Shown in pieces: positions 636-54,363 of a DNA stretch of 64,000 nt. Under the pieces are notes generated by a model. That model was not told where the DNA came from. It saw nothing but the letters and a program-made list of their open reading frames with translations, and ran no database searches. Position 1 is the first letter of the stretch; every line of letters starts with the position of its first letter. Source of the DNA: an uncultured Bacteroidales bacterium (GTDB lineage Bacteria > Bacteroidota > Bacteroidia > Bacteroidales > UBA932); the NCBI GenBank assembly GCA_944326315.1, contig CALVDP010000003.1, positions 3,842 to 67,841 on the forward strand. Reading direction: 5' to 3'. The translations under genes were made by a program, and so were the position numbers.

Positions 636-644
636 AGCAGGAGA

Positions 645-2780: not shown

Positions 2781-2872
2781 ATTATTATCAGTCAGATGTC
2801 ATTAATAATGTGTCAAAACAACAAAGGCCTCAGGCATGAAGCCAGGCAAATTTCCAGCGGCGGACAGGAATG

Positions 2873-4669: not shown

Positions 4670-4697
4670 TGCGCTACAATATTATTTGGATAAGCCC

Positions 4698-5066: not shown

Positions 5067-5140
5067 ATTTTCTTTCCTTGTTTTAAGATTCTTTTACGGT
5101 GCAATTATATAACATTATTTCGGATTGGGAAATATTTTTT

Positions 5141-6862
5141 TCACTTTTTTATGAAGAAAAATGATTTTTGTTTCCTTTTCTTCCCGATGTCTCTTTCGAC
5201 GAAAACTTCCTGCATCGTATGGGGGTCTATACCAGTATAGAACATCACTGAAGAGGTGGTCATCGGGGTCGGTGTGAAATCCTGTACCTGATCCGTACGG
5301 ATACCTTTCAGTGCCGGATTCTCCGACAGTTTCTTCATGTCAGCCATGGTGCATCCAGGATGTCCGGATATGAAATACGGGACAAGAACACAGTGCTTTC
5401 CCGTCTTGCGGACAAGTGCGTCGAATTCCTCTCTCAGGCGTACGAAAAGCGAGAACGGCGGCTTGGACATAAGCTTGAGCACCCTGCTTTCCGTATGCTC
5501 CGGAGCCACCTTCAAGATGCCGGAAGTGTGACTGGTGACAAGTTCGTTGAAATACGGCCTTGACGATCCGTCTACAAAGCCTTTCTCGTCCAGGAAGAGG
5601 TCATACCGTATGCCGCTGCCTATATAGAAATTACGTATTCCCCTGACACCTTTTATCCTGGAATAAAGCCCGAGCAGCCTGGCATGCGACCTGTCGAGAT
5701 TCCTGCACGGGGCCGGGAAAAGGCATGACTTGCGCCTGCACTTGCCGCACAGCTCCTGATCCCGGCCAGCCATACCATACATGTTGGCAGTAGGCGCCCC
5801 CACATCCGAGATATTGCCCGCGAAGCCGGGGACATTCTCCAGATTCCGAATTTCCTCAAGGATGGATTCCTCCGAACGGGACTGTATGAACTTGCCCTGG
5901 TGGGCCGCTATCGTGCAGAAATTGCATCCCCCGAAACATCCTCGGTGGGTGTTCACGGAGAACTTTATCATCTCATAGGCCGGGATATGCTTGTCCTTAT
6001 ACCTCGGATGAGGCCGCTTGGTGAACGGGAGATCCCAGAAAGAATCCATCTCGGCGGTAGTCGCCGGAGGATAAGGCGGGTTCACCTGGACATATCCGTC
6101 ACCGCACGGCTCTGCAATCACGGGAGGATGCATCATGTTGGCCGCGGTCTCTATCCGGTGAAAATTCTCCGCAAAAGCCCTCTTGTCCCTGAGGCACTGC
6201 TCGTAAGGATTGAGGATCAGAGCATCCTTTACCCGGCACCTGCCGCTCATGAAAAAGGCAAGCTGGGGGATTTTCCTGATATCGGATGCATTCCTTTCCG
6301 ACTCGATTGCCCTGGTCAGCTCCAGCATCGTACGCTCCCCCATCCCGTATGAAAGATAGTCTGCACCGCTTGACACCAGTACCGAAGGCATCAGGCAGTC
6401 TTTCCAGTAATCATAATGGGCAAGCCTCCGGAGTGACGCCTCTATGCCTCCTATGACCACAGGTATTTCCGGGAAAAACCTCTTGAGGATTTTCGTATAC
6501 ACCGTGACGGCATAATCGGGCCTTTGCCCCGCCTTGCCCAGAGGTGTATAAGCATCGTTGCTACGAAGCCTTCGTGAAGCAGTGTAGTGGTTGACCATGG
6601 AATCCATAGCCCCTGAGTTCACTCCGAAATACAGCCTCGGGGCCCCCAGTTTCCTGAAATCCCTCAGGTCATCCCTCCAGTTGGGCTGAGGCACCACCGC
6701 CACCCTGTATCCGTACTTCTGCAGATACCTCGCAATGACGGCCGTGCCGAAAGAAGGGTGGTCTATGAATGCGTCACCAGTGAAAAGTATGACGTCAATA
6801 TAGTCCCACCCCAAATTCTCGACCTCCTTCACGGAAGTCGGTATCATATAAGCTTCCGCCAT
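5141..6862 (-). CDS. ygiQ: YgiQ family radical SAM protein
   Basis: GDAFIDHPSFG N-terminus, HRGCFGGCNFC CxxxCxxC motif, QVQDFTPTPMT. Confidence 0.92.
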   Translation of the reverse strand: MAEAYMIPTSVKEVENLGWDYIDVILFTGDAFIDHPSFGTAVIARYLQKYGYRVAVVPQPNWRDDLRDFRKLGAPRLYFGVNSGAMDSMVNHYTASRRLRSNDAYTPLGKAGQRPDYAVTVYTKILKRFFPEIPVVIGGIEASLRRLAHYDYWKDCLMPSVLVSSGADYLSYGMGERTMLELTRAIESERNASDIRKIPQLAFFMSGRCRVKDALILNPYEQCLRDKRAFAENFHRIETAANMMHPPVIAEPCGDGYVQVNPPYPPATTAEMDSFWDLPFTKRPHPRYKDKHIPAYEMIKFSVNTHRGCFGGCNFCTIAAHQGKFIQSRSEESILEEIRNLENVPGFAGNISDVGAPTANMYGMAGRDQELCGKCRRKSCLFPAPCRNLDRSHARLLGLYSRIKGVRGIRNFYIGSGIRYDLFLDEKGFVDGSSRPYFNELVTSHTSGILKVAPEHTESRVLKLMSKPPFSLFVRLREEFDALVRKTGKHCVLVPYFISGHPGCTMADMKKLSENPALKGIRTDQVQDFTPTPMTTSSVMFYTGIDPHTMQEVFVERDIGKKRKQKSFFFIKK

Positions 6863-6868
6863 CGGATC

Positions 6869-8653
6869 CTACATTCGCTCTGGAAGCCCTATGCCAAGGA
6901 TATCCATCGCCTTCACCAGTATCCTTGCGATCACGGAAAGAAGAGTGACCCTGAACTGAAGCAATGACGGGTTCTCCTCCCTGAGCACCGGAGTGTCATG
7001 GTAGTACTGGTTGAACTCCTTGGCCAGGTCATAAGCGTAATTCGCGATTATGGCCGGAGAATGTGCCGCACCAGCTTCCGCGACCTTGTCAGGATACATG
7101 TCAATAAGCTTCACAAGCCGTATTTCCTTAGGAGACAGACCTGCATCCTCCGGAACACTGTCCGGCAATATGCCGCGGTCCTCCGCCTTTCTCAGTATGG
7201 ACTTGATTCTTGCATGGGTGTATTGTATGAAAGGTCCGGTATTTCCGTTGAAATCGATGGATTCCTTCGGGTCGAAAAGCATTGTCTTCTTCGGATCGAC
7301 CTTTATGATGAAATATTTGAGGGCTCCGAGGCTCAGCATGCGGAAGAGCTTGTCCTGCTCCGCCTCTGTCATGTCCTCAAGTTTGCCGAGCTCCAGTGAC
7401 GTCTCCCGTGCTGTGTTGTACATCTTCTCCAGCAGGTCATCGGCATCGACTACGGTACCTTCACGAGACTTCATCTTGCCTTCAGGAAGCTCCACCATGC
7501 CGTATGAAAGGTGGTAGATATTGTCCGCCCATGCAAAGCCGAGCTTTTTCAGTATCAGCTTGAGCACCTGGAAATGATAGTTCTGTTCATTCCCGACCAC
7601 ATAGATATGCTCGTCAAGGTTGTATTCTCCGAATCTCTGTTCAGCAGTACCCAGATCCTGGGTAATGTACACCGAAGTGCCGTCGCCTCTGAGCAGGAGT
7701 TTCCTGTCAAGTCCGTCGGCAGTAAGGTCGCACCATACAGAGTTGTCGGCTTCCTTCTCGAAGATACCCATGTCGAGACCTTTCTGTACAAGAGCCTTGC
7801 CGAGAAGATAAGTCTGTGATTCATAATATGTCCTATCAAAAGAAATACCGAGGTCGGCATAAGTCTTGGCAAAGCCGTCATATACCCAGGAATTCATCTT
7901 TTTCCACAAGTCTACGACTTCCTTGTCTCCGTTTTCCCATCTGAGGAGCATTTGCTGTGCCTCCTTCAGGACAGGGGCGTTTTTCTCGGCCTCTTCCCTG
8001 GACATCCCTCCTGCCACAAGTTCGTCGACTTCCTTCCTGTACATATCATTGAATGCGACATAGTAATCGCCGACAAGGTGGTCGCCTTTCTTTCCGGAAG
8101 ACTCAGGAGTCTCCCCGTTGCCCGTCTTCAGCCAGGCCAGCATGGACTTGCAGATGTGAATCCCCCTGTCATTGACAAGGTTGACCTTCAGCACCTTGTG
8201 TCCGTTAGCCTCAAGGAGCCTGGACACGGACCAGCCGAGAAGATTGTTGCGGATATGTCCCAGATGCAGAGGCTTGTTGGTGTTCGGAGAAGAAAACTCC
8301 ACCATTATGGTCTTCCCTGTCGGAGGAAGCTGTCCGAAACCTGCGTCAGAGGCGATGGAAGTGAACAGTCCTGCCCAATATGCATTGGCGAAAGACAGGT
8401 TGAGGAAACCTTTCACGACATTGAAAGACTCTATCTCGTCTGTATTCTCCTTCATCCACTCCCCGATAGCCTTGCCTGTGGCTTCAGGAGAAAGATGTGA
8501 AACCTTCAGAAGGGGAAACACCACAAGAGTGTAATCCCCTTCGAATTCCTTACGTGTCACCTGCACCTGGAAAGATGCGTCGGGCAATTCCGCCCCATAT
8601 AGTGCCGAGACTGCCGCCTTGGCTTTTTCTATGATGAATTTGTCTGGACTCAT
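6869..8653 (-). CDS. argS: Arginine--tRNA ligase
   Basis: EFSSPNTNKPLHLGHIRN (HIGH), GKMKSREG, GNTGPFIQYTHARI. Confidence 0.97.
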   Translation of the reverse strand: MSPDKFIIEKAKAAVSALYGAELPDASFQVQVTRKEFEGDYTLVVFPLLKVSHLSPEATGKAIGEWMKENTDEIESFNVVKGFLNLSFANAYWAGLFTSIASDAGFGQLPPTGKTIMVEFSSPNTNKPLHLGHIRNNLLGWSVSRLLEANGHKVLKVNLVNDRGIHICKSMLAWLKTGNGETPESSGKKGDHLVGDYYVAFNDMYRKEVDELVAGGMSREEAEKNAPVLKEAQQMLLRWENGDKEVVDLWKKMNSWVYDGFAKTYADLGISFDRTYYESQTYLLGKALVQKGLDMGIFEKEADNSVWCDLTADGLDRKLLLRGDGTSVYITQDLGTAEQRFGEYNLDEHIYVVGNEQNYHFQVLKLILKKLGFAWADNIYHLSYGMVELPEGKMKSREGTVVDADDLLEKMYNTARETSLELGKLEDMTEAEQDKLFRMLSLGALKYFIIKVDPKKTMLFDPKESIDFNGNTGPFIQYTHARIKSILRKAEDRGILPDSVPEDAGLSPKEIRLVKLIDMYPDKVAEAGAAHSPAIIANYAYDLAKEFNQYYHDTPVLREENPSLLQFRVTLLSVIARILVKAMDILGIGLPERM

Positions 8654-8689
8654 ATTGTTGAATTGTCGTCAGTTTAACGGATGACACCT

Positions 8690-9550
8690 CTATCCGAGGT
8701 AACTTTTGAGAAGCTTGCTTCTGGAATTGCTCCTGAGCCTGCGGATAGCCTTCTCCTTGATCTGCCGCACCCTCTCCCTTGTCAGGCCGAAACGCTCGCC
8801 TATTTCCTCAAGAGTCATCTCCTGGCAGCCGATACCGAAGAATGACTTGACTATCTCTCGCTCCCTCGGGGCAAGGGTCGACAATGCCCTCTCTATCTCC
8901 TTGTTCAGAGATTCATTCACGAGACCGCGGTCGGCGCTCGGCGAATCATTGTTAACAAGCACGTCAAGCAGGCTGTTGTCCTCACCTTCAACGAAGGGCG
9001 CATCTACAGACACATGGCGTCCGGACACTCTCAAGGTATCGGCGATCTTGTCCTTAGGGACATCTATCATCTCCGAAAGTTCCTCGGTAGAAGGCATCCT
9101 TTCATTCTCCTGCTCGAATTTGGACAGGGCCTTGTTAATCTTGTTCAAGGAACCTACCTGGTTCAGAGGAAGCCTGACGATACGCGACTGCTCCGCAAGA
9201 GCCTGGAGTATGGACTGTCTGATCCACCACACTGCATACGATATGAACTTGAAGCCTCTGGTCTCGTCGAACTTCTCCGCTGCCTTTATCAGTCCAAGGT
9301 TGCCTTCATTGATAAGGTCCGGGAGACTGAGGCCCTGATTCTGATACTGTTTCGCCACTGACACCACGAATCGCAGATTGGCCCTCGTAAGCTTTTCAAG
9401 GGCCGCCTGGTCGCCTTTGCGGATACGCTGTGCAAGCTCCACCTCATCCTCTACTGTAATAAGTTCTTCCCTTCCGATCTCCTGCAGGTACTTGTCAAGA
9501 GATGCGCTTTCACGGTTTGTGATTGATTTTGTAATTTTAAGCTGTCTCAT
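8690..9550 (-). CDS. rpoD: Primary sigma-70 factor, short Bacteroidetes type lacking region 1.1
   Basis: [45 protein letters not shown]. Confidence 0.95.
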
Positions 9551-9563
9551 ATATAAACAAAAC

Positions 9564-9612
9564 GTCTTCCGACGGATCTTTGATTATCATTTTCCCGGAT
9601 CCGCCGGAAGAC
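9564..9612 (-). terminator. Inverted repeat between degP and rpoD, possible leaky terminator
   Basis: 15-bp arms gtcttccgacggatc / gatccgccggaagac (1 mismatch), followed on the minus strand by GTTTTGTTT. Confidence 0.5.
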
Positions 9613-9638
9613 CAGTTTAAAACCGTTTCTGACGGGTC

Positions 9639-11069
9639 CTATTCTACTCCGAAGCCGAAATATGAAGGCCTGCCGTATGAGGTGACACCCTCAATGAACA
9701 CTGCCCTACGTGACTTCTTCACGATGTTCATGACATCTTCAGGAGTGCTGACAGGCTGGTCATTGACATACAGTATGACAAAGCCCTCGGATACACCGGC
9801 ATCCATTATCTTGCCCGGGCCCACGGATACTATCTCCACGCCTCTTTCAAGTCCGAGAGACTGAAGCTTCTCCTTCTCGGCCTTCTTGATCCTGGATCCG
9901 TAGAATGCCACTCCGCCGTCCTTGTCTACAGAGCCGTTGTCCACCATCGTACTCTTGAACTCGACCTCCACGACTTTCTCCTTGCCGTCCCTTATTACGG
10001 TAAGCTCGGCCTTGTCACCAGGTCTGTAGTTGTTGACAGCCTCCTGGACTGCAGCGGTACTCTTCACCTTGGCGGAATCGATTGCGACGAGAACGTCACC
10101 GACCTTGATCCCCGCCTTGTCTGCAGCACTCCCTTTCTGAACTTCAGTAATATATACGCCGTCAAATGAAGAAAGTTTCAATTCTTCGACAATTTTGTCA
10201 TCAATAGGCGACATTGTGATGCCGAGAACTGCCCTCTTGACGCTTCCGAAGTCAATAAGATCCTCCGCCACTTTCTTGACCATATTGGAAGGTATGGCGA
10301 AAGAATAGCCGGTGTAAGACCCTGTCTGGGACACTATTGCCGTATTCACACCCACCAGATTGCCCTTCTTGTCCACAAGGGCGCCGCCACTGTTGCCCGG
10401 ATTGACGGCAGCATCAGTCTGTATGAACGATTCTATCTTGAACTCGCCTTTATAGTTCGGCATCATACGCCCCTTGGCGCTGACAATGCCGGCAGTGATA
10501 GTGGAGCGGAGGTCATACGGGCTGCCTATCGCGAGCACCCATTCTCCCAGCCTGAGCTTGTCCGAATCCCCGAAAGGAATGACAGGAAGCCCCTCTGCGT
10601 CTATCTTAATGATGGCGACATCGGTAGCAGGGTCGGTCCCGACAAGCTGCGCATCGAACGTCTTGTTGTTGTTCAGGGTCACCTGTATCTCGGTAGCCCC
10701 TTCCACTACATGGTTGTTCGTCACGATATAGCCGTCCGGACGGATGATCACGCCCGAACCGCTTCCGACTTTCTCTCGCTCCTGTGGGGCGCCCTCGTAT
10801 CCGAAGAAGAAGTCAAATATGGAGCCCGGTATGCCGGTAACGACATCCTTGGCGACCACTTTCACATATACCACCGCATCCACGGCGGATTCCGCAGCAT
10901 AAGTGAAGTCCGGATAATCAGAAAGTGACAAATTGACAGTACGGTACTGGCTGCCGTCAGATGTGACTACGGTCATCTTCTCCGAAGTATCGGCATTCTT
11001 CACCACCGCATAAGCTGTCAGTCCACCTACAATGGCTGACAGAAGAATGATTAAAATTCCCTTTTTCAT
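9639..11069 (-). CDS. degP: HtrA/DegP (Do family) serine protease with two PDZ domains
   Basis: TNNHVV, TDVA, GNSGGAL catalytic triad motifs; start set at MKKGILII (11069). Confidence 0.93.
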   Translation of the reverse strand: MKKGILIILLSAIVGGLTAYAVVKNADTSEKMTVVTSDGSQYRTVNLSLSDYPDFTYAAESAVDAVVYVKVVAKDVVTGIPGSIFDFFFGYEGAPQEREKVGSGSGVIIRPDGYIVTNNHVVEGATEIQVTLNNNKTFDAQLVGTDPATDVAIIKIDAEGLPVIPFGDSDKLRLGEWVLAIGSPYDLRSTITAGIVSAKGRMMPNYKGEFKIESFIQTDAAVNPGNSGGALVDKKGNLVGVNTAIVSQTGSYTGYSFAIPSNMVKKVAEDLIDFGSVKRAVLGITMSPIDDKIVEELKLSSFDGVYITEVQKGSAADKAGIKVGDVLVAIDSAKVKSTAAVQEAVNNYRPGDKAELTVIRDGKEKVVEVEFKSTMVDNGSVDKDGGVAFYGSRIKKAEKEKLQSLGLERGVEIVSVGPGKIMDAGVSEGFVILYVNDQPVSTPEDVMNIVKKSRRAVFIEGVTSYGRPSYFGFGVE

Positions 11070-11206
11070 ATTTTCCAAATTATTGATTTCTCTGCAATAG
11101 CTGACGTCCTCCTTCTTTCCACACATTCCGGCGGGACTGCCAGGTTCCGGAACTGACGGTAAGCAGAAAAATCAAATTATATGCCATGATTAATGCAAGT
11201 TTTTTG

Positions 11207-11214
11207 TATATTTG
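11207..11214 (+). promoter_or_regulatory. Bacteroidetes -7 promoter box, probably for the dnaN operon
   Basis: TATATTTG matches TAnnTTTG; no other such box seen before the dnaN ATG. Confidence 0.55.
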
Positions 11215-11223
11215 CTTAATGTA

Positions 11224-11365
11224 AAGTGAATTCGATGAAATGAATGGAATGAATTTCAGAGAATTACCTCTATAGAGGACGAAGTCCGATGTAAGTTCTC
11301 CCTTACGCAGGGAAGAATTTAAGAGGGATGACACGGAAATGGATAAAGAGATTTCGAAGAAATCG
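11224..11365 (-). mobile_element. MITE-like element copy C (truncated, reverse orientation)
   Basis: Near-identical to reverse complement of 54421-54560; lacks the 55-bp left terminal hairpin and a matching target duplication. Confidence 0.8.
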
Positions 11366-11428
11366 CAATTCAGACCCCGTGACACGACATGCCATTTTAC
11401 ACGGATTTTAACAAATTTATCTTATTAT

Positions 11429-12547
11429 ATGAAACTGGTTATTTCTAGTTCGGAATTATTGAAAGGGATAATGACTGTCGCCAAGGCTATTCCGGCCAAA
11501 TCAGCGCTCCCGATCCTTGAAAACTTCCTTTTCGACCTGAAAGGGAACACCCTTGAGATCACGGCATCTGACTCCGAGCTCACAATGAGGACAAGTATCG
11601 AAGTCGACAACGCTGAGGAAGAAGGGCAGATAGCCATCCCGGCGAAGCATCTGATGGACCTTCTGAAAGAGCTTCCGGACCAGCCGCTTTCCATAAGGAC
11701 AGTGAGCGATACGTCTTTCGAGTTCAGCTGGGCGAACGGAGCTTCCACCCTTCCGTATTTTCCGGCAGGTGACTATCCTCCGTTCACTGACATGGAGGAA
11801 AGCGCAGTGACCCTGGACTTCCCTGCACAAGGCCTGATGGAGGGCATAGCATCTACAATATACGCCACGGCAGACGATGAGATACGGCCGACCATGAACG
11901 GAATATATTTCGACATAGATACGGAATCGACTACATTGGTGGCTTCAGACGCCCACAAGTTGGTGTGCTATACGACCAAGGATGTCAAGGCCTCCGAGAA
12001 AGCGTCATTCATTCTTCACAAGAAGCCGGCCGCCATACTGAGAAGCATCATAGGCAAGAATACGGAAAACGTGAGCATTGCCTTCGATTCGAAGAACGCG
12101 ATGTTCAGGTTCGACGACACAGTCGTGGTCTGCCGCCTTGTAATAGGGAAATATCCGAGATACAGGGATGTGATACCTCAGAACAACAGCAACATCATGA
12201 AGATCGACAGGCTCCAGCTCCTGAACTCCGTCCGCAGGGTATCGGTGTGTGCGAACAAGGGGTCGAACCACATCAAGTTCAACCTGAGTGCGAACTCGCT
12301 GGAGATTACGGCCCAGGATCTCGGCTTCTCGCTTGCGGCATACGAGAAAGTGCCTTGCGAATACGACGGCGACGAGCTCAGCATCGGCTTCAAGTCCACT
12401 TTCCTGATCGAGATACTTGGCAACATCGACTGCAACGAGGTGGTGCTCAAGTTCGCGGACGGGACAAGACCTGCAGTCATCGTTCCTTCCGAAGAAGAAG
12501 AGCAGAGCGAGAAGATATGTGGAATCCTCATGCCTAGCATTGCCTGA
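11429..12547 (+). CDS. dnaN: DNA polymerase III beta sliding clamp
   Basis: PILENFLF, ASDAHKL, GKYPRYRDVIP, IGFKSTFLIEIL; start set at MKLVISS. Confidence 0.95.
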   Translation: MKLVISSSELLKGIMTVAKAIPAKSALPILENFLFDLKGNTLEITASDSELTMRTSIEVDNAEEEGQIAIPAKHLMDLLKELPDQPLSIRTVSDTSFEFSWANGASTLPYFPAGDYPPFTDMEESAVTLDFPAQGLMEGIASTIYATADDEIRPTMNGIYFDIDTESTTLVASDAHKLVCYTTKDVKASEKASFILHKKPAAILRSIIGKNTENVSIAFDSKNAMFRFDDTVVVCRLVIGKYPRYRDVIPQNNSNIMKIDRLQLLNSVRRVSVCANKGSNHIKFNLSANSLEITAQDLGFSLAAYEKVPCEYDGDELSIGFKSTFLIEILGNIDCNEVVLKFADGTRPAVIVPSEEEEQSEKICGILMPSIA

Positions 12548-12552
12548 CAGAT

Positions 12553-13464
12553 ATGGAACTGAATCTTGAAAGGCCGATACTCTTTTTCGACATAGAGAGT
12601 ACCGGTCTGAACATTGCGACCGATGCCATAATAGAGCTCAGCTTCGTAAAGATACTCCCTGGTAACGAAACAAGGGTGAAAACATGGAGAGTGAGGCCAT
12701 GGGACTATGTCGGAGAATGCCAGAGGAAAGTAAATCCGAGCGCATACGAAATACACAAGATAAGCGACGAAGAACTTGCCGGAGAGAAAAGATTCTTCGA
12801 AATATGCGATGAAGTGGAAGAATGGCTGGACGGGTGCGACCTGGCCGGTTTCAATTCAAACAAGTTCGACCTCCCGATGCTAGCGGAAGAACTGGAAAGG
12901 GTGAGAAAATACAGGCACAAGGCCATCCGCACGGATCTGCACAAGATGAGAATGGTGGACGTGCAGAATATCTATCACCAGCTGGAGCCGAGGAACCTCA
13001 AGGCGGCCTACAAGTTCTACTGCGGAAAGGAACTGGAGAACGCACATGCCGCGGAAGCTGATACAATGGCCACATACGAGGTCCTCAAGGCACAGCTTGA
13101 CAAGTATCCGGACCAGCTGAAGAATGATGTTGCCTTCCTGTCGAATTTCTCGGAAAGGCAGAAAATCGTGGACTATGCAGGACGGCTCGTATATAACGAC
13201 AAGAAGGAAGTCGTGATCAATTTCGGGAAACACCGGGGAAAGACCGCGCGGGAAGTGTACGAGACAGAACCGTCATATTTCAGCTGGATCGAGAACGGGG
13301 AATTCACCCTTGATACCAAGCAGCAGTTCAGCCAGCTCCGGCGTCAGTTCGAGGCCGAGAAGCAGGAAGCGAAGAAGGCAGCGATGAAGAAGCTGACTGA
13401 CAAGGAACTGGAGAAGTCTGTCGGCTCTCTGGCAGAAAAATGGGGATCAGGCAGACTCTTCTGA
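12553..13464 (+). CDS. DEDDh 3'-5' exonuclease (DnaQ/epsilon-like)
   Basis: FFDIESTG, GFNSNKFD, AHAAEAD; C-terminal FGKHRGK motif. Confidence 0.88.
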   Translation: MELNLERPILFFDIESTGLNIATDAIIELSFVKILPGNETRVKTWRVRPWDYVGECQRKVNPSAYEIHKISDEELAGEKRFFEICDEVEEWLDGCDLAGFNSNKFDLPMLAEELERVRKYRHKAIRTDLHKMRMVDVQNIYHQLEPRNLKAAYKFYCGKELENAHAAEADTMATYEVLKAQLDKYPDQLKNDVAFLSNFSERQKIVDYAGRLVYNDKKEVVINFGKHRGKTAREVYETEPSYFSWIENGEFTLDTKQQFSQLRRQFEAEKQEAKKAAMKKLTDKELEKSVGSLAEKWGSGRLF

Positions 13465-14033
13465 TGAATATTACTGTCAAGACATACGGTTCCGGGCTTC
13501 TATGCAGACCGGATACGACCTGGGAGAGGGAAAACAAGGATTTTTACTCTCCCGGTTTTGTGCAGGAGATAAGGTATGCTCCAGTGGTGTTCGCCAGGAT
13601 ATGCAAGGCAGGGAAATGCATTTCAGGCAAATTCGCTGCGAGATATTATGACGGACTTAATTTCGGCATGCTGCTCTACCCTGCATTCAAGGATGAACCA
13701 TGGAATACGGCGTCCTCGTCAATATTGGACCATACTTCATTCCTTCCATTCCCTCTGTACCAGCCTGTTGTCTTCGGGAGCAGCGGAAACGGCTTCCGCA
13801 TCATGAAAGACGGAATGCCGCTGTTCTGCACGGAGACCAGAGACGGATATTTCATCAGGCTTGTCGAAGAGTGCCTCACCGAAGCCTCTGCATACGTAAG
13901 CCAGAGGATAGGCGATCTTGTAGCAGTGGAACTTGCCGGACCGGAAAAGCTCATGGGGGAAGACGAAAAAAAAGCCGAAATCAGTGCTTTCTTCTGTGAA
14001 AACGAACTGTTCCGGCTTTCGATATTCAAGTGA
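13464..14033 (+). CDS. Divergent fumarylacetoacetate hydrolase-like protein
   Basis: TGATG overlap with exonuclease; RICKAGKCISGKFAARYYD resembles Bacteroidetes FAH-family proteins. Confidence 0.6.
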   Translation: MNITVKTYGSGLLCRPDTTWERENKDFYSPGFVQEIRYAPVVFARICKAGKCISGKFAARYYDGLNFGMLLYPAFKDEPWNTASSSILDHTSFLPFPLYQPVVFGSSGNGFRIMKDGMPLFCTETRDGYFIRLVEECLTEASAYVSQRIGDLVAVELAGPEKLMGEDEKKAEISAFFCENELFRLSIFK

Positions 14034-14105
14034 GCCACTCACGGGGATCGAACCCGCGACCTACGCGTTACGAATGCGTTGCTCTACCATCTGAGCTAAA
14101 GTGGC
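14033..14105 (-). tRNA. tRNA-Thr(CGT)
   Basis: GCCACTT/GAGTGGC acceptor stem, TAGCTCAGATGGTAGAGC D arm, loop TTCGTAA, GGTTCGATCCC T arm; CCA not encoded. Confidence 0.95.
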
Positions 14106-14151
14106 TTGCTTGTTCTCCCTTTCCTTCACGAAGTGTCCGGAAAAGGGATTG

Positions 14152-14182
14152 CAAAAATACTATATTTTTTTGATAATGCAAA
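14152..14182 (-). promoter_or_regulatory. Promoter of tRNA-Thr
   Basis: Minus-strand TTTG (14179-14182), 19-nt spacer, TATTTTTG (14152-14159). Confidence 0.75.
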
Positions 14183-14210
14183 GAATTTGCACAGAGTCTG
14201 TGTTTTTCCG

Positions 14211-15506
14211 ATGAATGCTGATATTGTAATAATAGGCTGCGGCGCGGCAGGGCTCATGGCCGCCACAGGTGCAGCAAAGACAGGAGCCGGAGTACTTGTC
14301 ATCGAGAAGATGCCGCGTCCCGGAAGGAAAATCATGATAAGCGGGAAAGGCAGATGCAATATCACCAATCTCAAGGACTGGAACAGTTTCTCACAGCATA
14401 TACACCCGAAGGCGAATTTCCTGAAACCGGCATTCTACAATTTGCCGCCGGAAGAGACCATACGCTTCCTGAATGACAACGGGCTTGAAACCGTAGTCGA
14501 GCGTGGAGACCGCGTGTTTCCGGCCTCATACAAGGCTTCGGATGTCGTGGATACGCTGGTGAAGGCCATGAGGCAGGCGGGTGCAAGGCTTATGCCCGGA
14601 ACTGAGACAGCGGACATCTGCAAGTCAGGGGACGGCTTCACGATAAGTCTGGCTGACGGAAAGACAATTGCCGCAAGGAAACTGATCCTGGCTACCGGAG
14701 GGCTCTCCTATCCGGGTACAGGGTCCACCGGCGACGGATACAGGTGGGCGGAAGCGCTGGGACATAAGATAAACAGATGTTTCCCTTCACTGACAGCCCT
14801 TGTCCCCTGCGGATACAAGGCCATACCGGAAAAGGCTCCGGGGAAAGGACATATTGACAGATCCTTGCCGCTTTCAGACCTTGGGAAATCCCTCATGGGA
14901 AACCAGCTCAAGAATGTGACTCTGACAGTGAGTATTGACGGGAACGTAGTCGCGGAAGAATTCGGGGACATCGACTTTACTGACGGCGGGATAGAAGGTC
15001 CTGCAGGCTTCAAGGTAAGCCGGCGCTGCGTGAATGCGCTCTGCAACGGGTCCAAGGTGAAGTTCTCCATTGACCTGAAACCGGCTGTAGCGATGGAAAG
15101 CCTGGCAAAGAGAGTGGAAACCCTGTGGAATGAAATAGCCGGAGACAGACGGAGCAGAGGGAAAAGCGAAAAGGACATGTTCCGGATATTGCTCGGCAAG
15201 CTGCTTCCGATGTCGGTTACTGAAGGCTTCGTGAAGACATGTCCCGGAATGGATACCAGATCATTGTGCAGGAATCTCAAGAACTGGGAATTCAGGATCT
15301 GCGGATATGTCGGATACGAGCGCTGCGTAGTCACTGCAGGAGGAGTGTCCACAGACGAAATCTCTCCGAAGACAATGGAATCCAAAATTGTTCCCGGTCT
15401 CTACTTCGCCGGGGAGATAATGGACCTGGACGGTGATACCGGTGGATATAATCTCCAGACGGCGTTCTCTACAGGAATGCTTGCCGGGATGTCCGCAGCT
15501 AAATGA
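14211..15506 (+). CDS. HI0933/BaiN (YhiN-like) flavoprotein
   Basis: IIGCGAAGLMAA, GRKIMISGKGRCNITN, VTAGGVS, TGGYNLQTAFSTG. Confidence 0.9.
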   Translation: MNADIVIIGCGAAGLMAATGAAKTGAGVLVIEKMPRPGRKIMISGKGRCNITNLKDWNSFSQHIHPKANFLKPAFYNLPPEETIRFLNDNGLETVVERGDRVFPASYKASDVVDTLVKAMRQAGARLMPGTETADICKSGDGFTISLADGKTIAARKLILATGGLSYPGTGSTGDGYRWAEALGHKINRCFPSLTALVPCGYKAIPEKAPGKGHIDRSLPLSDLGKSLMGNQLKNVTLTVSIDGNVVAEEFGDIDFTDGGIEGPAGFKVSRRCVNALCNGSKVKFSIDLKPAVAMESLAKRVETLWNEIAGDRRSRGKSEKDMFRILLGKLLPMSVTEGFVKTCPGMDTRSLCRNLKNWEFRICGYVGYERCVVTAGGVSTDEISPKTMESKIVPGLYFAGEIMDLDGDTGGYNLQTAFSTGMLAGMSAAK

Positions 15507-16935
15507 CACCGGACCCTATCATCTCATCATTGTCATACCATACAGCGAACTGACCCGGGGAGACACCGCGCTGAGGCTCGTCGAAGAGTATGAAAAGTCC
15601 GTTGCGTCTCATGATGAGAGTGGCATCCTGAAGCGGCTGGCGGTAACGTATCCTCACCCTATACCTTCGGATCTCGCCCTCCTGCATGCAAAGGTCCTCC
15701 CTTATCCAGTGCAGGTCTTCCTGCAGGATACGTACGCAGCTTCTTGAAAGCCCCTTATGCGTATGCCCCTCCCCTACGTAAATCGTATTCGACTGTATAT
15801 CTGTCGCTATGACGAAAATGCTGTCCTTGTGGCCTCCGATGTTGAGCCCCTTCCTCTGTCCGATGGTATAGAACTGCGCACCATCATGTTTCCCGATAAT
15901 CCTGCCGTACGGATTATCCTTGTACCTTGTTTTCCTGACATGCTTTCGTCCGGAGCGGTAAGTCTCTGTCTCGAACTGTATGTCATAGGACACAGGCTCA
16001 GACAGGAGCCGGAGAGTCTCATCGGAAAGACCGGAAAGCTTGCATCTGTCGAAAGGTCCGTCACCGGAGCAGCCTCCTTCACGGGACGGGTCGCCCATGA
16101 CGGTTCTCTCATGGACAGCGTCATTGACCTTCAGGGATCTGGTTTCCGATATGTACGAAGTGACCATCTCCACCGGTGTGTCAGCACCGTCCTTGCGAAG
16201 GCCGCCAAGAGTCTGTTCCAGAAAGCGGTAATGCGCATTGTCATGGAAATAGGCGTCAAAGACTTCCACGACATCGCCCTCGGCCGGCTTGAGCTTCTGC
16301 TGGAGGAAGACCGGCAGGTCCACCTTGCCTACGAAACATATCCCCTGGGAATCCTTCTTGTCTGCAGAAGGCAGATCCGCTTCCGCCGCAATCCTGCGCA
16401 CCTCAGGCTTCTTCAAGTCTCCTATCGGGAAAAGCGCACGCGAAAGCTGACTCTGGGACAGCTGGCACAGGAAATAACTCTGGTCCTTGTCCGGATCCAA
16501 GCCTGCAAGAAGCCTGTATACCGGCATGCCGTCCGCGCCCTGTATCTCGTCTTTCCTGCAATAATGTCCTGTCGCCACATATTCGGCGCCAAGCCTGGCG
16601 GCACACTTCATGAAAGCATCGAACTTGATCTCACGGTTGCACAGCACATCCGGATTCGGTGTCCTTCCCTTCGAGTACTCATCGAACATATAGTCTACCA
16701 CGCGCTTGCGGTATTCTTCGCTGAGATCGACGAAATAGAACGGTATGCCAATCTTCCGGGCGACCATTTCCGCGACAAAACGGTCCTCTTCCCATTCGCA
16801 CTCCCCGTGCAACGTCCCTTCTGTATCATGCCAGTTCTGCATGAACAGTGCGAACACATCATAACCGGCCCTTTTGAGAAGAAGGGCGGCGACGCTGGAA
16901 TCGACTCCACCGGACAGACCGATGCATACTTTCAT
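15499..16935 (-). CDS. mnmA: tRNA 2-thiouridine(34) synthase with large internal insertion
   Basis: SGGVDS, NPDVLCN, KDQSYFL, DSQGICF, TIGQRKGL, PGQFAVWY. Confidence 0.95.
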   Translation of the reverse strand: MKVCIGLSGGVDSSVAALLLKRAGYDVFALFMQNWHDTEGTLHGECEWEEDRFVAEMVARKIGIPFYFVDLSEEYRKRVVDYMFDEYSKGRTPNPDVLCNREIKFDAFMKCAARLGAEYVATGHYCRKDEIQGADGMPVYRLLAGLDPDKDQSYFLCQLSQSQLSRALFPIGDLKKPEVRRIAAEADLPSADKKDSQGICFVGKVDLPVFLQQKLKPAEGDVVEVFDAYFHDNAHYRFLEQTLGGLRKDGADTPVEMVTSYISETRSLKVNDAVHERTVMGDPSREGGCSGDGPFDRCKLSGLSDETLRLLSEPVSYDIQFETETYRSGRKHVRKTRYKDNPYGRIIGKHDGAQFYTIGQRKGLNIGGHKDSIFVIATDIQSNTIYVGEGHTHKGLSRSCVRILQEDLHWIREDLCMQEGEIRRYRVRIRYRQPLQDATLIMRRNGLFILFDEPQRGVSPGQFAVWYDNDEMIGSGVI

Positions 16936-17036
16936 ATTTACTGCCTTTTGTTGTGATTATTATTCAAAAAACGCCAAAATTACAAGCATTTATAAGAAAA
17001 ACAATGATTTATATTCACAATCATAAGCAATTTTCT

Positions 17037-17586: not shown

Positions 17587-17617
17587 TTTGAAATCCAGGA
17601 AAAAAACATTACTTTTG
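17587..17617 (+). promoter_or_regulatory. Promoter of SRP RNA
   Basis: TTTG (17587-17590), 19-nt spacer, TACTTTTG (17610-17617). Confidence 0.8.
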
Positions 17618-17621
17618 CATC

Positions 17622-17717
17622 GGGTAAGTCATACACGACCAGCTCCTGCTGAATCCCCCAGGACCGGAAGGTAGCAAGGGTAGGCGGTTGTAGCGGTGCG
17701 ATGTATCAAGCTTACCC
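17622..17717 (+). ncRNA. ffs: Bacterial small SRP RNA (4.5S)
   Basis: Domain IV motif CAGGACCGGAAGGTAGCA; terminal helix GGGTAAG/CTTACCC followed by a T-run. Confidence 0.9.
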
Positions 17718-17731
17718 TTTTTTCGTTTATC

Positions 17732-21703: not shown

Positions 21704-21800
21704 ATATCCGCCATATCGGGATCATATCGACATATATCGACGCATATCGGCACATATCGGGATCATATCGACATATATCGGGATCAAATCGGAATCAAAT
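21704..21800. repeat. Tandem ATATCG array with 10-11 bp period
   Basis: ATATCG at 21713, 21724, 21734, 21744, 21754, 21765, 21775; AAATCG at 21786. Confidence 0.9.
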
Positions 21801-21842
21801 GCCGGGAAAGACGCGCCAAGGACCTATCCGACACGGCAGATT

Positions 21843-24433: not shown

Positions 24434-25312
24434 ATGCGCAAGACACTTGACAACGGCATTCTGACAATCGAGGCAGACAGCCATGGCGCGGAACTTTGCA
24501 GTATCCGCAGGAACGGTACGGAATATCTCTGGCAGGCCGACCCGGCTTTCTGGGGGCGTCATTCGCCAGTGCTTTTCCCTATTGTCGGGAAAGTATGGGA
24601 AGACAGATACAGGGTAGACGGACGGGAATTCAGCCTGTCACAGCACGGATTCGCCAGGGACATGGAATTCTCGCCGGTACGGGACGAAGACAATGAGATG
24701 ATGTTCAGGCTGGAGGATACAGCCGCAACCATGGAGAAGTATCCCTTCCATTTCTGTCTTGAAATAGGCTACAGACTCGAAGGGGATGAAATCAAGGTGC
24801 TCTGGAAAGTCCGCAATACGGGTGACGGGACTATGTATTTCCAGATAGGGGCGCATCCGGCATTCCTGTATCCCGACTATGTGCCAGGGACATCCGGAAG
24901 AGGATTTTTCCATTTCGGAGGGAAAAAAGACATAGGGTACATACTGATCAGCGAGAAAGGCTGCGCCGACACCGCACACAGATACACCCTCGGCATGGAC
25001 GGGGAATATATGCCGCTTGATACGGGAACATTCGACAAGGACGCACTGATCATAGACAATTCCCAGGTGGACAAGGTCACGCTCTGCCGTCAGGACAAAT
25101 CGCCATGGCTCAGTCTGAGCTTCAAGGCTCCGGTCGTAGGACTATGGTCGCCTCCGGGCAAGGACGCACCCTTCGTATGCATCGAGCCGTGGTACGGACG
25201 CTGCGACAGGACCGGATACACGGGAGACATCAAGGACAGGGACTGGATGAATGCCCTGGCCCCGGGAGCGATATTCGAAAGCTGCTACACCATCAGGCCC
25301 GAGGTACGGTAA
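24434..25312 (+). CDS. Aldose 1-epimerase family protein (LacX-like)
   Basis: HGAELCSI, EYLWQAD, PVLFPIVG, HGFARD, FQIGAHPAF, FVCIEPW. Confidence 0.9.
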   Translation: MRKTLDNGILTIEADSHGAELCSIRRNGTEYLWQADPAFWGRHSPVLFPIVGKVWEDRYRVDGREFSLSQHGFARDMEFSPVRDEDNEMMFRLEDTAATMEKYPFHFCLEIGYRLEGDEIKVLWKVRNTGDGTMYFQIGAHPAFLYPDYVPGTSGRGFFHFGGKKDIGYILISEKGCADTAHRYTLGMDGEYMPLDTGTFDKDALIIDNSQVDKVTLCRQDKSPWLSLSFKAPVVGLWSPPGKDAPFVCIEPWYGRCDRTGYTGDIKDRDWMNALAPGAIFESCYTIRPEVR

Positions 25313-25380
25313 GAAATCAGACATCGCCAGACCCGGGACACGATAAGAAATCGGACACCATCAGGCCCGAGGTACGGTAG
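25284..25380 (+). repeat. 34-bp tandem repeat (~2.7 units) at a convergent gene junction
   Basis: acaccatcaggcccgaggtacggta at 25287 and 25355; degenerate middle unit 25310-25343. Confidence 0.85.
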
Positions 25381-25382: not shown

Positions 25383-27452
25383 TCAGGAATTGCCCATCGG
25401 GTCAGAAAAGGATACCATATCCTCCATATCGACCTGCTCCGGATAAAGGATGATGAAATTCCCTATCGACTGGTTCCGGAGCAGAAGCTGCGGAAGCTTG
25501 TCCAGAACCGGATTGTATGATATCGAGCCGCTTCTTGCGCTCACGACCACAAGGATATCCTCCGGTTTCATTTCCGCGGACATCTGTTCCTGCAACGAAA
25601 GCCTCTCGACAGGAAGGAATCTGGATGAGGTCCCGAATCCGTAATACGAAGCTTTCTTCCGGATCTGCTCCATCGTGACATTCTCGGATATGAAACTTAT
25701 CCTGCACCCGAGCTGGCCCGACATGCGGCCGAGATGTCCCATCCATCTTGAAAACCCGGCCTCGTATTCAGCACGTGGAGGGACTATGACATGTATGGCC
25801 TTGAGAGTATTGACAGGAATTGTCAGCCTTGCGACTATCACCTCCACACTCGTCCCCCTGAGCAGATTGCTTGTCAGTGCCCCGAAAAATGAATCGAGAA
25901 AGCCTGTCTTCTGATGAAGGCCAAGGACTATATCCGTAGCAGAATATTCCTTGAGAGTGTGTATGATACCTGTCGATATGCTGATATCGTAGCGGCTCAC
26001 CATGCTGAGGCTGACATCGGCCGCAGCCGCGATTTGCGCAGCCTTTTCCAGCCCGCGTCTTCCGCTTGCCGCCCTGTCACCGGCGTTGTCAGAATCCACC
26101 GTGACATTGAGGGCGACGAAATCCCCTCCTGCCCTCGGCTTCATTATGACAAGGGCAAGGTTGATAAGGTTCTCTATCGTATCCGGATTCGCTATCGGTA
26201 TCAGAATACGTTCCTTGGAATTGTCCCTGACCTCTGTTCCTGACGGCTGGCCGCCTGTCGCAAGCTTCCGGCCGGACCAGTCGGTGACAAGCGAACTGAT
26301 GATGCATGTGAAAAGTATCATCACCACTGTGCCGTTCAGCACATCATCGTTCAGAAGCCGCTCCCCGTTCTCCATGATTATCCCGTGTCCGACAAGGACC
26401 GCAGCAAGCGTAGCAGCAGCCTGAGCGTTGCTGAGCCCGAACATCATGCCTCTCTCGTCACGTGACATGCCGAACATCTTCTGAGTCCCCCATGCAGCAA
26501 GCCACTTGCTCAATGTTGCCACCACAGTCATGACCACCGCGACCTTCAGTGCCGTCCCTCCGGCGAAAAGCGTACGCACGTCTATGATCATCCCGACACC
26601 TATCAGGAAATACGGGATAAACAGCGCATTGCCCACGAATTCAAGCCTGTTCATCAACGGCGACACCCTCGGTATGAGCGGATTGAGCACAATCCCCACA
26701 AGGAAGGCACCGAGAATGCCTTCCATACCGGCAAGCGACATAAGGCCTCCCCCAAGGAAGACCATCGCGAGCACGAAGACGAACTGCATGACGGGATCAT
26801 CATACTTGCGGAAGAACCACCTGCCCAGCATCGGGAAACAGAATACTATGAGAAGGCTTATCAGCACCACATTGATGAAGAGAAGAAGCCAGTAGAGACC
26901 GTCGGAAGTTCCCTTGTACATGCCGCTTATCACTGCAAGGATGATAAGGGCCAGGGTGACAGTGATGACAGTCCCCCCTATCGTGATATTGACGCTCCTC
27001 TGCCTCGCGAGCCCGTACCTGCTTACTATCGGGTATGCGACAAGGGTATGGGAGGCGTACATGCTCGCCAGCAATATGGATGTCGTCAGGGAATAATCCA
27101 GGAGCGAGATACTGCTCCATATCCCGAGAGCCATGGGGATAGTGAATGTAAGAATGCCGAACACAAGTCCCTTGACCTTGTTTTTCCGGAAATCCTCCAG
27201 GTCCATCTCAAGACCGGCGAGGAACATAATATAGAAAAGCCCCACACGGCCGAACAGCTCGAAACTGCTGTCCCTTTCAAGGATATTGAAACCGAACTCG
27301 CCCACAGCCACACCGGCAAGAATCATCCCGATGATGTGTGGAATCCTCAACCGTCCGAGAAGAAGCGGAGCGAAAAGAATAATTATCAATACTATAAGAA
27401 AAATCCACGTAGGATCTGTTACAGGAAGGTTGAATACAGAGAGCAGGTCCAT
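25383..27452 (-). CDS. Cation:proton antiporter (CPA2) with C-terminal USP-like domains
   Basis: Many TM helices, EGILGAFLVG, FIPYFLIGVG; soluble RILIPIANPDT region. Confidence 0.88.
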   Translation of the reverse strand: MDLLSVFNLPVTDPTWIFLIVLIIILFAPLLLGRLRIPHIIGMILAGVAVGEFGFNILERDSSFELFGRVGLFYIMFLAGLEMDLEDFRKNKVKGLVFGILTFTIPMALGIWSSISLLDYSLTTSILLASMYASHTLVAYPIVSRYGLARQRSVNITIGGTVITVTLALIILAVISGMYKGTSDGLYWLLLFINVVLISLLIVFCFPMLGRWFFRKYDDPVMQFVFVLAMVFLGGGLMSLAGMEGILGAFLVGIVLNPLIPRVSPLMNRLEFVGNALFIPYFLIGVGMIIDVRTLFAGGTALKVAVVMTVVATLSKWLAAWGTQKMFGMSRDERGMMFGLSNAQAAATLAAVLVGHGIIMENGERLLNDDVLNGTVVMILFTCIISSLVTDWSGRKLATGGQPSGTEVRDNSKERILIPIANPDTIENLINLALVIMKPRAGGDFVALNVTVDSDNAGDRAASGRRGLEKAAQIAAAADVSLSMVSRYDISISTGIIHTLKEYSATDIVLGLHQKTGFLDSFFGALTSNLLRGTSVEVIVARLTIPVNTLKAIHVIVPPRAEYEAGFSRWMGHLGRMSGQLGCRISFISENVTMEQIRKKASYYGFGTSSRFLPVERLSLQEQMSAEMKPEDILVVVSARSGSISYNPVLDKLPQLLLRNQSIGNFIILYPEQVDMEDMVSFSDPMGNS

Positions 27453-27545
27453 ATGTCCGTTTTTAATCTGCAGGCACACCGTCAGGTGCACCGTTTTTTT
27501 TAACAAAAACAACGTCAGTGCGACGCATCAATTCATGTAAATTTA

Positions 27546-27862
27546 ACGTCAGTTCGACGAATTATTCTGTTCAGTATCAGAGATCCCGTCGAACTGACGT
27601 TACGATTTCTCCGAAATCCCTCTCCTTTTTCGTGTCACCCCTCTTAAAGAGGGTGACTCAAAAGTGACTTTTGGTCACCCTCAAACGTCTTTCTTCGAAA
27701 GACTGGACCCATCCTAACCCCCTGTACCCCCTATTAGGGGGATATCGCTTCCTCCGGTCGCGGTCCCTTCGGGACTTTTGACCCAGCCTCCTTACGCCGG
27801 ACTTCGTCCTCCATAGAGGTAATTCGATGAAATTCATTCCATTCATTTCATCGAATTCGCGT
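27546..27862 (+). mobile_element. MITE-like element copy A (317 bp, long central cassette)
   Basis: Ends ACGTCAGTTCGACG / CATCGAATTCGCGT; flanked by perfect direct repeats TAAATTTA (27538-27545, 27863-27870). Confidence 0.85.
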
Positions 27863-27936
27863 TAAATTTAGCAAATAACGGCGGATTTGCATGAAAATAT
27901 TTGCAGAAATGTCTTCAGAAATGTCTTCTGCGCCGC

Positions 27937-29043
27937 TCAGCTCTGCTTCTTGTATGTGACTACGGCAAATATATTGATGACCACAGCAAATACCGAAAGC
28001 ATGACAAAATCAAATGTCAGGTCGGAGAAGCTGCTGCCCTTCAGGCACACTGCCCTCAGTATATTCACGAAATACCTTGTAGGAAGGATGTATGTCACAT
28101 ACTGCGACCATGTCTCCATGGAGCTGACAGGAGTGAAAATACCACTCATCAGCATGAATATCAGGACAAAGAAGAGCATCAGGAAAACAGACTGGAGCAT
28201 GGTCTCGGAATAATTGGAGATGATTAGTCCGAAACCTCCCATGAACACGAGGAAAATCATTGAGCTCACATATATCTCCAGAAGACCTCCGTGTGATGCC
28301 AGGCCGTATACGAAATGGGCTATCACTATGGCCAGCGTGAATGCGAAGATCCCGAGAATCCCATAGAAGACGACCTTGGAAAGGATAAAGTCCCTTTTCC
28401 GCACAGGAGAGACATTGATCTGCTCGATAGTGCCGTTTTCCTTTTCGGAGACAATGCTCAGCGTAGGGAAAAAGCCGCCCACAAGAATTATGACCACAAT
28501 CATCAGGGCCGGGACCATGAAAAGTTTGTATTCAAGATGCGGATTATACCTGTATTGCGGGATAATTGTCAGCGGTGAGGAGGTCTCAAGGCCGGATGAG
28601 CCGGACAACTCGGCGGAATAGTCTGTCACGATAGACGAAAGATAGCCTCCGCCCATCGTCCCCTTGGTATTGTTCACGGCATTGGCCGCTATCAGTATCT
28701 CCACGTTCTCCCCGTTGCCGACAGACCGCTCCGCCCCCTCGGGTATCTCCATGATAATGTCCGCACGCCCCTTGCTGAGCTGCTCCATCGCATCCTCGTA
28801 GGAATCTTCATAGGAGGAAAAGACAAAGTATCCCGAACGAGAGATTCTGTCAATGAGCTGTGTGGACATGGTGGAACGGTCCCTGTCCACTATGGACAGC
28901 CGGACATCCCTCACCTCCATGTTGGCGGCAAGCGGGACCACAAGCATGAGGAGGAGAGGAAGCAGGATCAGGACCACCGGCATGAAAGGATTGGACTTGA
29001 ACTGCCTGGCTTCCTTGACGAACAGATATCCGAATGCTGACAT
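27937..29043 (-). CDS. ABC-2 type transporter permease
   Basis: SIVSEKENGTIEQINVSP, LMSGIFTP; start set at MSAFGYL. Confidence 0.9.
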   Translation of the reverse strand: MSAFGYLFVKEARQFKSNPFMPVVLILLPLLLMLVVPLAANMEVRDVRLSIVDRDRSTMSTQLIDRISRSGYFVFSSYEDSYEDAMEQLSKGRADIIMEIPEGAERSVGNGENVEILIAANAVNNTKGTMGGGYLSSIVTDYSAELSGSSGLETSSPLTIIPQYRYNPHLEYKLFMVPALMIVVIILVGGFFPTLSIVSEKENGTIEQINVSPVRKRDFILSKVVFYGILGIFAFTLAIVIAHFVYGLASHGGLLEIYVSSMIFLVFMGGFGLIISNYSETMLQSVFLMLFFVLIFMLMSGIFTPVSSMETWSQYVTYILPTRYFVNILRAVCLKGSSFSDLTFDFVMLSVFAVVINIFAVVTYKKQS

Positions 29044-53213: not shown

Positions 53214-53284
53214 CCTGGTCCGCGGCAGGCCTCCCGGAGAGAGAGGAAAATCCAACGGACCGACCTTAAACAAACAGCAGGAAA

Positions 53285-54208: not shown

Positions 54209-54363
54209 CGAAACTGCATTGCAATAATGACGGCAGCCATGACAACAGGGTTCTACGCATGTTCGGAGAAAACGGGAATCCCGGATGAGGGGAAAGGAGA
54301 CGGGACTGCAGCCGTCGGTGACAGCGTGGGCCGGGCATGGTATTCCGGAAAGAAGTATCAATA

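Follow-up and report, generated by a model that had tools for sequence, protein, structure and literature searches.

Three related segments lie between genes in a 64,000-nucleotide stretch of DNA from an uncultured Bacteroidales bacterium (here called the window), and the question that they raise is whether they are copies of a mobile element and, if so, what moves them. The window is Bacteroidales DNA of approximately 52% GC, with a Bacteroidales small SRP RNA at 17615-17721, and comes from a resident of the chicken gut, the host lineage being uncultured Bacteroidales of that habitat (Candidatus Cryptobacteroides and relatives). A reading made earlier from the letters alone (the sequence-only reading) had described three related intergenic copies of a MITE, and sequence comparison within the window placed all three, each intergenic, in a single family, with the extent of the third refined to 11224-11368. 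Copy A, the 317-nt long form, occupies 27546-27862 on the + strand, 94 nt upstream of a Na+/H+ antiporter gene (25383-27452, - strand) and with an ABC-2 permease gene (27937-29043, - strand) on its other side. Copy B, the 197-nt canonical form, occupies 54364-54560 on the + strand, with metF (53285-54208) before it and the V-ATPase E subunit gene (54892-55506) after it. Copy C is a truncated copy at 11224-11368 on the - strand, between htrA (9639-11126, - strand) and dnaN (11429-12547). It corresponds to positions 55-197 of copy B at 92% identity and therefore does not have the 55-nt hairpin that forms the left end of the other two; it has no flanking repeat, and its terminus has decayed from ACGT to ACTT. 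The element has no coding capacity: its sole open frame is without a start codon, and peptide searches with that frame gave only spurious ORFs called over other copies.

Copies A and B are each flanked by an exact 8-bp direct repeat, different at the two sites as had been claimed, with TAAATTTA at 27538-27545 and 27863-27870 around A and TATCAATA at 54356-54363 and 54561-54568 around B. Empty alleles of both sites were found in metagenome contigs from other samples, and each of them carried a single copy of the 8-mer. At the site of B, a contig of run X3 (1113 nt, depth 6.3, equal to the flank depth) connects 54355 to 54561 and omits 205 nt, which is the 197 nt of the element plus 8, with 9 letters fitting either side. 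At the site of A, a contig of run X4 (611 nt, depth 17.2, again the flank depth) connects 27537 to 27863 and omits 325 nt, or 317 plus 8, with 8 letters fitting either side. Since filled and empty alleles differ by the element plus 8 nt, the 8-bp repeats are true target duplications, and the empty sites with a single 8-mer demonstrate that A and B inserted recently and are polymorphic within the species. A was, moreover, not the first arrival at its site. A solo left-end remnant of 26 nt (ACGTCAGTGCGACGCATCAATTCATG, 27512-27537, + strand), one mismatch from the left-end 14-mer described below, abuts its target site upstream and is present in the empty allele also (the X4 contig covers 27250-27537), and A therefore landed beside an older fragment. 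An empty B site was also sought through metF orthologue loci; the strains at 99% identity all carry B, and in the relatives at 91% and 83% the spacer was much shorter and non-alignable, giving no clean empty site.

Target duplications were then compared over all of the independent, full copies for which both flanks were available, 13 in number, with left flanks paired with the wrong right flanks as the control. Repeats of 6 to 8 bp flanked 8 of the 13 copies, and the mismatched pairs had a repeat of at least 6 bp in 1.9% of cases (p ~2e-11 for the observed 8/13). The repeats are of 8 bp in two copies (TAAATTTA and TATCAATA), of 7 bp in three (TATATTA, TACATTA, and TCTCTTA), and of 6 bp in three (TAAATA, TATATA, and TATTTA); one further copy has a 7-bp near-repeat with one mismatch (TAATATA / TAACATA), and the remaining four have nothing beyond TA. 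The duplications always have TA at the end and nearly always at the start, and where copies stand in tandem in metagenomes, TA-rich spacers of 6-8 nt with TA at both spacer ends lie between them. The proposed TA-N4-TA form of the duplication is thus correct for the 8-bp case of A and B and does not hold as a general rule, the lengths being 6, 7, or 8 bp and one sequence being TCTCTTA. In that copy the right-hand repeat begins with TC, so TA lies outside the right end, and the alternative reading that had been offered, of TA-terminated ends with a 4-bp duplication, is excluded. Models of fixed length (8 bp, 4 bp with TA assigned to the element, or 6 bp with TA on one side) were tried as well, and none fits all 13 copies. 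The sequence-only reading had considered two observations that would speak against mobility, other copies without flank duplications and the absence of an empty site anywhere; duplications of at least 6 bp flank 8 of the 13 full copies, and empty sites were seen for A and B. These findings support its core inference of a recently active, multicopy, non-autonomous MITE mobilised in trans.

The prominence of TA raises the possibility of a Correia- or RUP-like MITE moved by an IS630/Tc1-type transposase, which would duplicate TA only. TA adjoins the left end in 16 of 16 flanks and the right end in 15 of 18, and 5 of the 13 copies (the near-repeat among them) have no repeat beyond TA, as such an element would produce. 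It predicts, however, empty sites that omit the element plus 2 nt, and those seen omit the element plus 8 nt; with one duplication being TCTCTTA, whose right-hand repeat begins with TC, we regard this explanation as extremely improbable. Correia elements of Neisseria duplicate TA only, and their terminal repeats, of 26 bp, base-pair with one another, whereas the duplications of the family are 6-8 bp, its hairpins are local, and its sequences are unrelated to theirs. The likeness is one of kind: both are small, numerous, and intergenic, with TA targets, size classes due to internal deletion, no transposase in the host locus, and the capacity to be cotranscribed with neighbours (review PMC10969869).

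Each full element consists of four modules, a left hairpin of 55 nt, a left sub-module of 48 nt, a central cassette, and a right module of 72 nt. The imperfect terminal inverted repeats that had been reported are present, the left end ACGTCAGTTCGACG matching the right end read inward, ACGTGAATTCGATG, at 11 of 14 positions and the right end in A, ACGCGAATTCGATG, at 10 of 14. In copy A, all on the + strand, the left hairpin (27546-27600) has the outer arm ACGTCAGTTCGACG and the inner arm CGTCGAACTGACGT, two inverted ends of the IS195/ISPg3 type. Its arms are perfect over 14 nt, or 16 nt when the flanking TA is counted, and the inner arm is an ISPg3-type end, as the earlier description of a 55-bp hairpin with an internal third end had it. 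The left sub-module (27601-27648) contains a small hairpin, GATTTC-NNN-GAAATC, and the tract GTGTCACCCCTCTTAAA. The central cassette of A (27649-27790) is a 142-nt block of at least three other high-copy palindromic units, standing in place of the 22-nt hairpin (TTCTCCCCTGCGTAGGGGAGAA, 54467-54488, + strand) that forms the cassette of B, and the right module (27791-27862), terminating in ...ATTTCATCGAATTCGCGT, is the most conserved part of the family. The left-end 14-mer, with up to three mismatches, occurs 15 times, compared with 4.4 +/- 1.9 times in shuffles. Local hairpins follow one another along the entire element, the single-strand fold z-scores being -8.1 for copy B and -9.4 for copy A, and the hairpins at its two ends show no relation to one another.

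These structures bear on two explanations that would dispense with a conventional transposon. The first is a derivative of a hairpin-ended single-strand transposon, either an IS200/IS605-type palindrome-associated element or a REP/BIME moved by a tyrosine HUH transposase. Hairpins at both ends and in most internal modules (fold z of -8 to -9), a left flank always ending in TA, and a modular, mosaic make-up would all suit it, and the units inside the 142-nt cassette of A are the best fit to the short GC-rich intergenic hairpins of REP/BIME mosaics. REP/BIME elements have neither IS-type terminal inverted repeats nor target duplications, whereas the family has both. Elements of these two kinds insert without target duplication, and here the alleles differ by the element plus 8 bp; the unrelatedness of the two end hairpins, and ends that are inverted repeats identical to those of a DDE insertion sequence, also argue against this origin, which we consider very unlikely. 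The second is that the segments are not mobile and represent a conserved structured non-coding RNA or a regulatory repeat under selection. Sequence conservation across species is extreme, and one internal position of the right module is occupied by three different sequences that all form a stem (GGAC-TTC-GTCC, GGATTCG-TTCCA-CGAATCC, and TCGGGG-ACTTCG-CCCCGA); copies also appear in metatranscriptome contigs, and copy C is fixed across the strains seen, with the same spacing in contigs L040-L046. Conversely, comparison across copies showed that the ends are the best-conserved parts, and the few substitutions in the arms of the end hairpins are uncompensated, which points to protein-binding sites and not to selection for pairing. 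A search of Rfam 15 gave nothing at gathering thresholds, the best matches scoring 12-21 bits against thresholds of 50-219; scans of the element for sigma-70 promoters and terminators gave no convincing signal, and no Bacteroides-type -7 TAnnTTTG motif was seen in it by eye. Together with presence/absence alleles bounded by target duplications and with copies at unrelated loci in either orientation to neighbouring genes, the uncompensated changes and the lack of an Rfam match make a conserved RNA or regulatory repeat highly improbable as the primary explanation.

The ends of the element resemble those of a known insertion sequence. The inverted repeats of ISPg3 of P. gingivalis are ACGTCAGTTCGA and TCGAACTGACGT (Klein et al. 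2015, Table 2, PMC4596501). The first 12 nt of the element are ACGTCAGTTCGA, identical to the left repeat of ISPg3 (12/12), and the inner arm of the 55-nt hairpin finishes with the 12 nt TCGAACTGACGT, identical to the right repeat of ISPg3 (12/12). The right end of the element is less close to the ISPg3 repeat, at only 10 of 12 positions, and matches the left end of MITE239 (ACGTGAGTTCGATA..., PMC4596501 Table 2) at 13 of 14. ISPg3 is the same as IS195 (PMC9328147), a member of the IS982 family of 1070 bp with a 300-aa transposase, 12/12 inverted repeats, and an 8-bp duplication (Fayad et al. 2020 citing ISfinder, PMC7335449 Table 1). The IS982 family has AC termini and direct repeats of variable length, 2-10 bp, with 7-bp repeats for IS1187 and ISPrsp2, both likewise from Bacteroidales (PMC7335449), and a composite transposon of ISPg3 gave 4- and 7-bp duplications (Naito et al. 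2008, PMC2575886). The duplications observed here (8, 8, 7, 7, 7, 6, 6, and 6 bp) fall within this variable range. The family consensus is AC(N)6T(N)5TT; both ends of the element, ACGTCAGTT and ACGTGAATT, fit its AC-N6-T part, and the TT further on is shifted in the element by 2 nt. The element therefore shares with IS195/ISPg3 the 12-bp repeat ACGTCAGTTCGA, at its left end and in the inner hairpin arm, as well as AC termini and an 8-bp duplication, and differs from it in being non-coding.

The sequence-only reading had named IS1595, ISL3, and IS256, makers of 8-bp duplications, as the likely parent families. The ends of these three families usually begin with G-rich motifs, not ACGT. Exact 8-bp duplications at the window copies A and B are what would be expected if a transposase of one of them were the driver, and, no parent element having been found in the window or in approximately 598 kb of related DNA, each of them is formally conceivable. 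The length of the duplications varies, however, from 6 to 8 bp, and the termini begin with AC and are identical to the ISPg3/IS195 repeat (12/12; PMC4596501 Table 2; PMC7335449 Table 1), with IS195 making 8-bp duplications too. AC ends, the 12-nt repeat, a variable duplication of about 8 bp, and a Bacteroidales host thus make these families less likely, to the point that we consider a driver from among them improbable. Conversely, a left end and an inner arm that are exact ISPg3 repeats, and a right end that is a diverged copy, make an IS195-like transposase of the IS982 family, acting in trans, the most likely driver. With terminal inverted repeats, target duplications, dispersed copies, a length of 78-317 nt, and no coding capacity, the family is a MITE; on the strength of 12-14 terminal nucleotides taken from a published table, it is probably one of the IS195/ISPg3 type, mobilised in trans. 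A DDE transposase supplied from elsewhere would bind the ends of the element and cut the target with a stagger of 6-8 nt, the target site being AT-rich and having TA at its end and nearly always at its start; the element would be joined in, and repair of the stagger would produce the flanking direct repeat.

We looked for such a transposase in several ways. Pfam scans of 30 ORFs and annotations of related contigs revealed none in the window, which holds only housekeeping genes and a few short ORFs without a Pfam match, in agreement with what had been said of it. Nor was an IS195-like gene seen in the window or the related contigs, and an autonomous element bounded by the ends of the family (TAACGTCAGTTCGACG ... 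CATCGAATTCACGT) was not found in the window or in approximately 598 kb of related contigs. A regex search of the 598 kb for end pairs 0.7-2.5 kb apart gave only chance matches, inside coding sequence of L010. Neither the open frame nor all six frames joined led to a long protein carrying a peptide from the ends of the element, the matches being short spurious ORFs throughout, and a full-text literature search with the end sequences as words gave no match, the link to ISPg3 coming from a table in the BrickBuilt paper (PMC4596501). Because short-read MAGs usually lose IS copies, the absence of an autonomous partner from these sequences is weak evidence. The matching insertion sequence is known only from P. 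gingivalis (PMC4596501).

The family is abundant, as the earlier expectation of many copies implied. A 23-mer from the right end was found at 14 loci in five species-representative MAGs, which are uncultured Bacteroidales bins and Ca. Cryptobacteroides intestinipullorum, and further loci (L060-L068) were obtained by searching the translated open frame of the element against spurious ORF calls. Copies occupy non-orthologous intergenic sites in at least five MAGs, in either orientation relative to the neighbouring genes. Copy B and copies in MAG BRZ_PT bin109 are 98-99% identical, and the genes of that MAG are 76-78% identical to those of the window. In four chicken-gut metagenomes the summed contig depth over the element was 200-17,000, compared with 6-17 for unique flanks, a ratio of 30-1000, and hundreds of different metagenome contigs terminate in the element; many assemblies of the species of the window break inside it. 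Exact pattern scans for the left and right ends in JGI metagenome contigs revealed no copy of the family, scans of viral contigs revealed none either (a single 18-mer match, in L049, is due to chance), and a BLAST comparison with plasmids and phages was likewise negative. Across copies, gene callers predict spurious ORFs of 44-116 aa (e.g., P0121-P0130; window 54285-54569, + strand; L016 and L060-L068), since one of the element's frames runs through it without a stop codon; these calls are useful for fishing out copies and are a source of false hypothetical proteins. In contigs of chicken-gut metatranscriptomes (runs X25-X27), family copies are joined to varied flanks, and the locus at 54200-54720 of the window is uncovered; read-through transcription of copies elsewhere is the likely source, DNA carry-over is possible, and we attach no specific functional meaning to these contigs.

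Copies vary in size around the canonical length of 197 nt, with variants of approximately 78, 133, 294, and 317 nt. The 133-nt form (in L010, in L024, and, apparently, in L004, whose contig begins inside the element) has 64 nt missing between two direct repeats CTCTTAAATTC, and L018 has a similar internal deletion slightly larger than these 64 nt; we infer that recombination between these internal CTCTTAAATTC repeats is what generates the deletion forms. Hairpin-less forms like copy C, beginning TA|ACGATTTC, are common, and some of approximately 78 nt lie within long contigs. The 294-nt form (L067) is diverged and has another cassette. In metagenome contigs, the 142-nt cassette of A had a depth of 2000-4000, compared with 8 for the flanks, with loose ends at 27649 and 27703. 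The same block is present in L006, there without the left module, and its units resemble the sequences at 62190-62233 and 54621-54644. The first of these is a terminator-like hairpin after the V-ATPase K gene, resembling one unit of the cassette, and the second a hairpin downstream of copy B (within 54611-54655), resembling another. The palindromic units of the cassette, being high-copy in metagenomes, point to further small-repeat families in the genome.

Exchange of the cassette is best seen at the site of A, where independent assemblies gave three alleles with identical flanks and the same duplication. The 317-nt allele is found in the window and L038, a 197-nt allele with the 22-nt hairpin in L030-L035, from four projects, and the third allele is empty. 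Both filled alleles have the private end variants of A, and the difference between them is the cassette and a few bases on each side, in short-read metagenome assemblies in which chimeric assembly through a repeat is possible. Since the filled alleles differ only in the central tract, the pattern is as gene conversion from another copy would produce, and we infer that the central cassette is exchanged between copies in this way.

Related species provide further examples of size variation. In a species with metF 91% identical to that of the window, a copy lies between metH and metF (L024 2353-2485 and L014 1-184), its length being 197 nt or 133 nt depending on the assembly; the metH-metF spacer of the window (53214-53284) has no copy, unlike that of the related species, and the flanks of L024 and L014 are too diverged from those of the window for a clean empty-site comparison. 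L004 (1-80) and L006 (2691-2904) both have a copy in an orthologous spacer, in species whose flanking gene is 72% identical. The copy in L004 is the deletion form, that in L006 consists of the cassette and right module only, and the immediate flanks differ too; these could represent an old shared insertion or repeated hits on one spacer.

The closest described relatives of the family are MITE239 and MITE700 of P. gingivalis, which have ISPg3 ends (Naito et al. 2008, PMC2575886). They come from the same bacterial order as the family and are likewise non-coding, intergenic, and multicopy with ISPg3-type ends, and MITE700 has variable internal insertions and deletions, as found here (PMC2575886, PMC4596501). 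In a comparison of the published ends, the left end of MITE239, ACGTGAGTTCGAT, matches the right end of the family, ACGTGAATTCGAT, at 12 of 13 positions. The two P. gingivalis elements are 239 and ~720 nt long, compared with 197 nt for the family, which differs from both in having a left hairpin of 55 nt in which two perfect ISPg3-type repeats are combined, and an exchangeable palindromic cassette. They are also present in 5-14 copies per P. gingivalis genome, whereas the family is far more abundant and occurs in several species at 98-99% identity. BrickBuilt/MITEPgRS of P. gingivalis and BOX of S. pneumoniae also have conserved end modules around a variable modular interior. The interiors of BrickBuilt and BOX are, however, tandem direct repeats (23- or 41-nt minisatellites and boxB units, respectively) and that of the family is a slot for different palindromic units; the ends of BrickBuilt are of the ISPg1 type (GAGACC...) and those of the family begin ACGT.

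The family is thus undescribed and of a known kind, set apart by its abundance, current activity, near-identity across species, and exchangeable hairpin cassette. Bacteroidota MITEs have been described so far only in Porphyromonas (review PMC10969869), and the assignment made here would mean that outside that genus, too, ends of the IS195/ISPg3 type drive a MITE, one that is very abundant and active at present in uncultured Bacteroidales of the poultry gut. A bolder reading, doubtful in our estimation, is that the family is a modular carrier whose central slot acquires and swaps small palindromic units (terminator- or REP-like), that it is now carrying them horizontally among chicken-gut Bacteroidales, and that the driver transposase resides on a transferable element, not on the chromosomes of the hosts. 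Horizontal spread is possible because copies from species with ~22% divergence in their genes are 98-99% identical. If the carrier reading were true, the 55-nt left hairpin would be the minimal transposon itself and the hairpin-less forms its excision products. For a MITE with IS195/ISPg3-type ends, the reading that we prefer, the 12-bp end and a duplication of 6-8 bp ending in TA provide a handle for finding the transposase. In practical terms, the element breaks short-read assemblies and generates spurious ORF calls, and the empty, short, and long alleles at one site offer a strain-level marker. Copies adjoin promoters, and with A upstream of the Na+/H+ antiporter gene, filled and empty strains constitute a natural expression experiment; some copies may have a secondary, domesticated role.

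Other repeats and insertions were observed in the window and its close relatives. Exact 25-nt direct repeats at 25287-25311 and 25355-25379, 68 nt apart, lie between the 3' ends of the aldose epimerase and antiporter genes, and exact 28-nt repeats 41 nt apart lie upstream of secA (21712-21801). Strains at 99% identity (L016-L018 and L021-L023) have an extra insertion of ~107 nt directly after the metF stop codon (window 54209-54211), which is absent from the window and from L015, L019, and L020; it is a second indel polymorphism in the metF spacer and is unrelated to the MITE.
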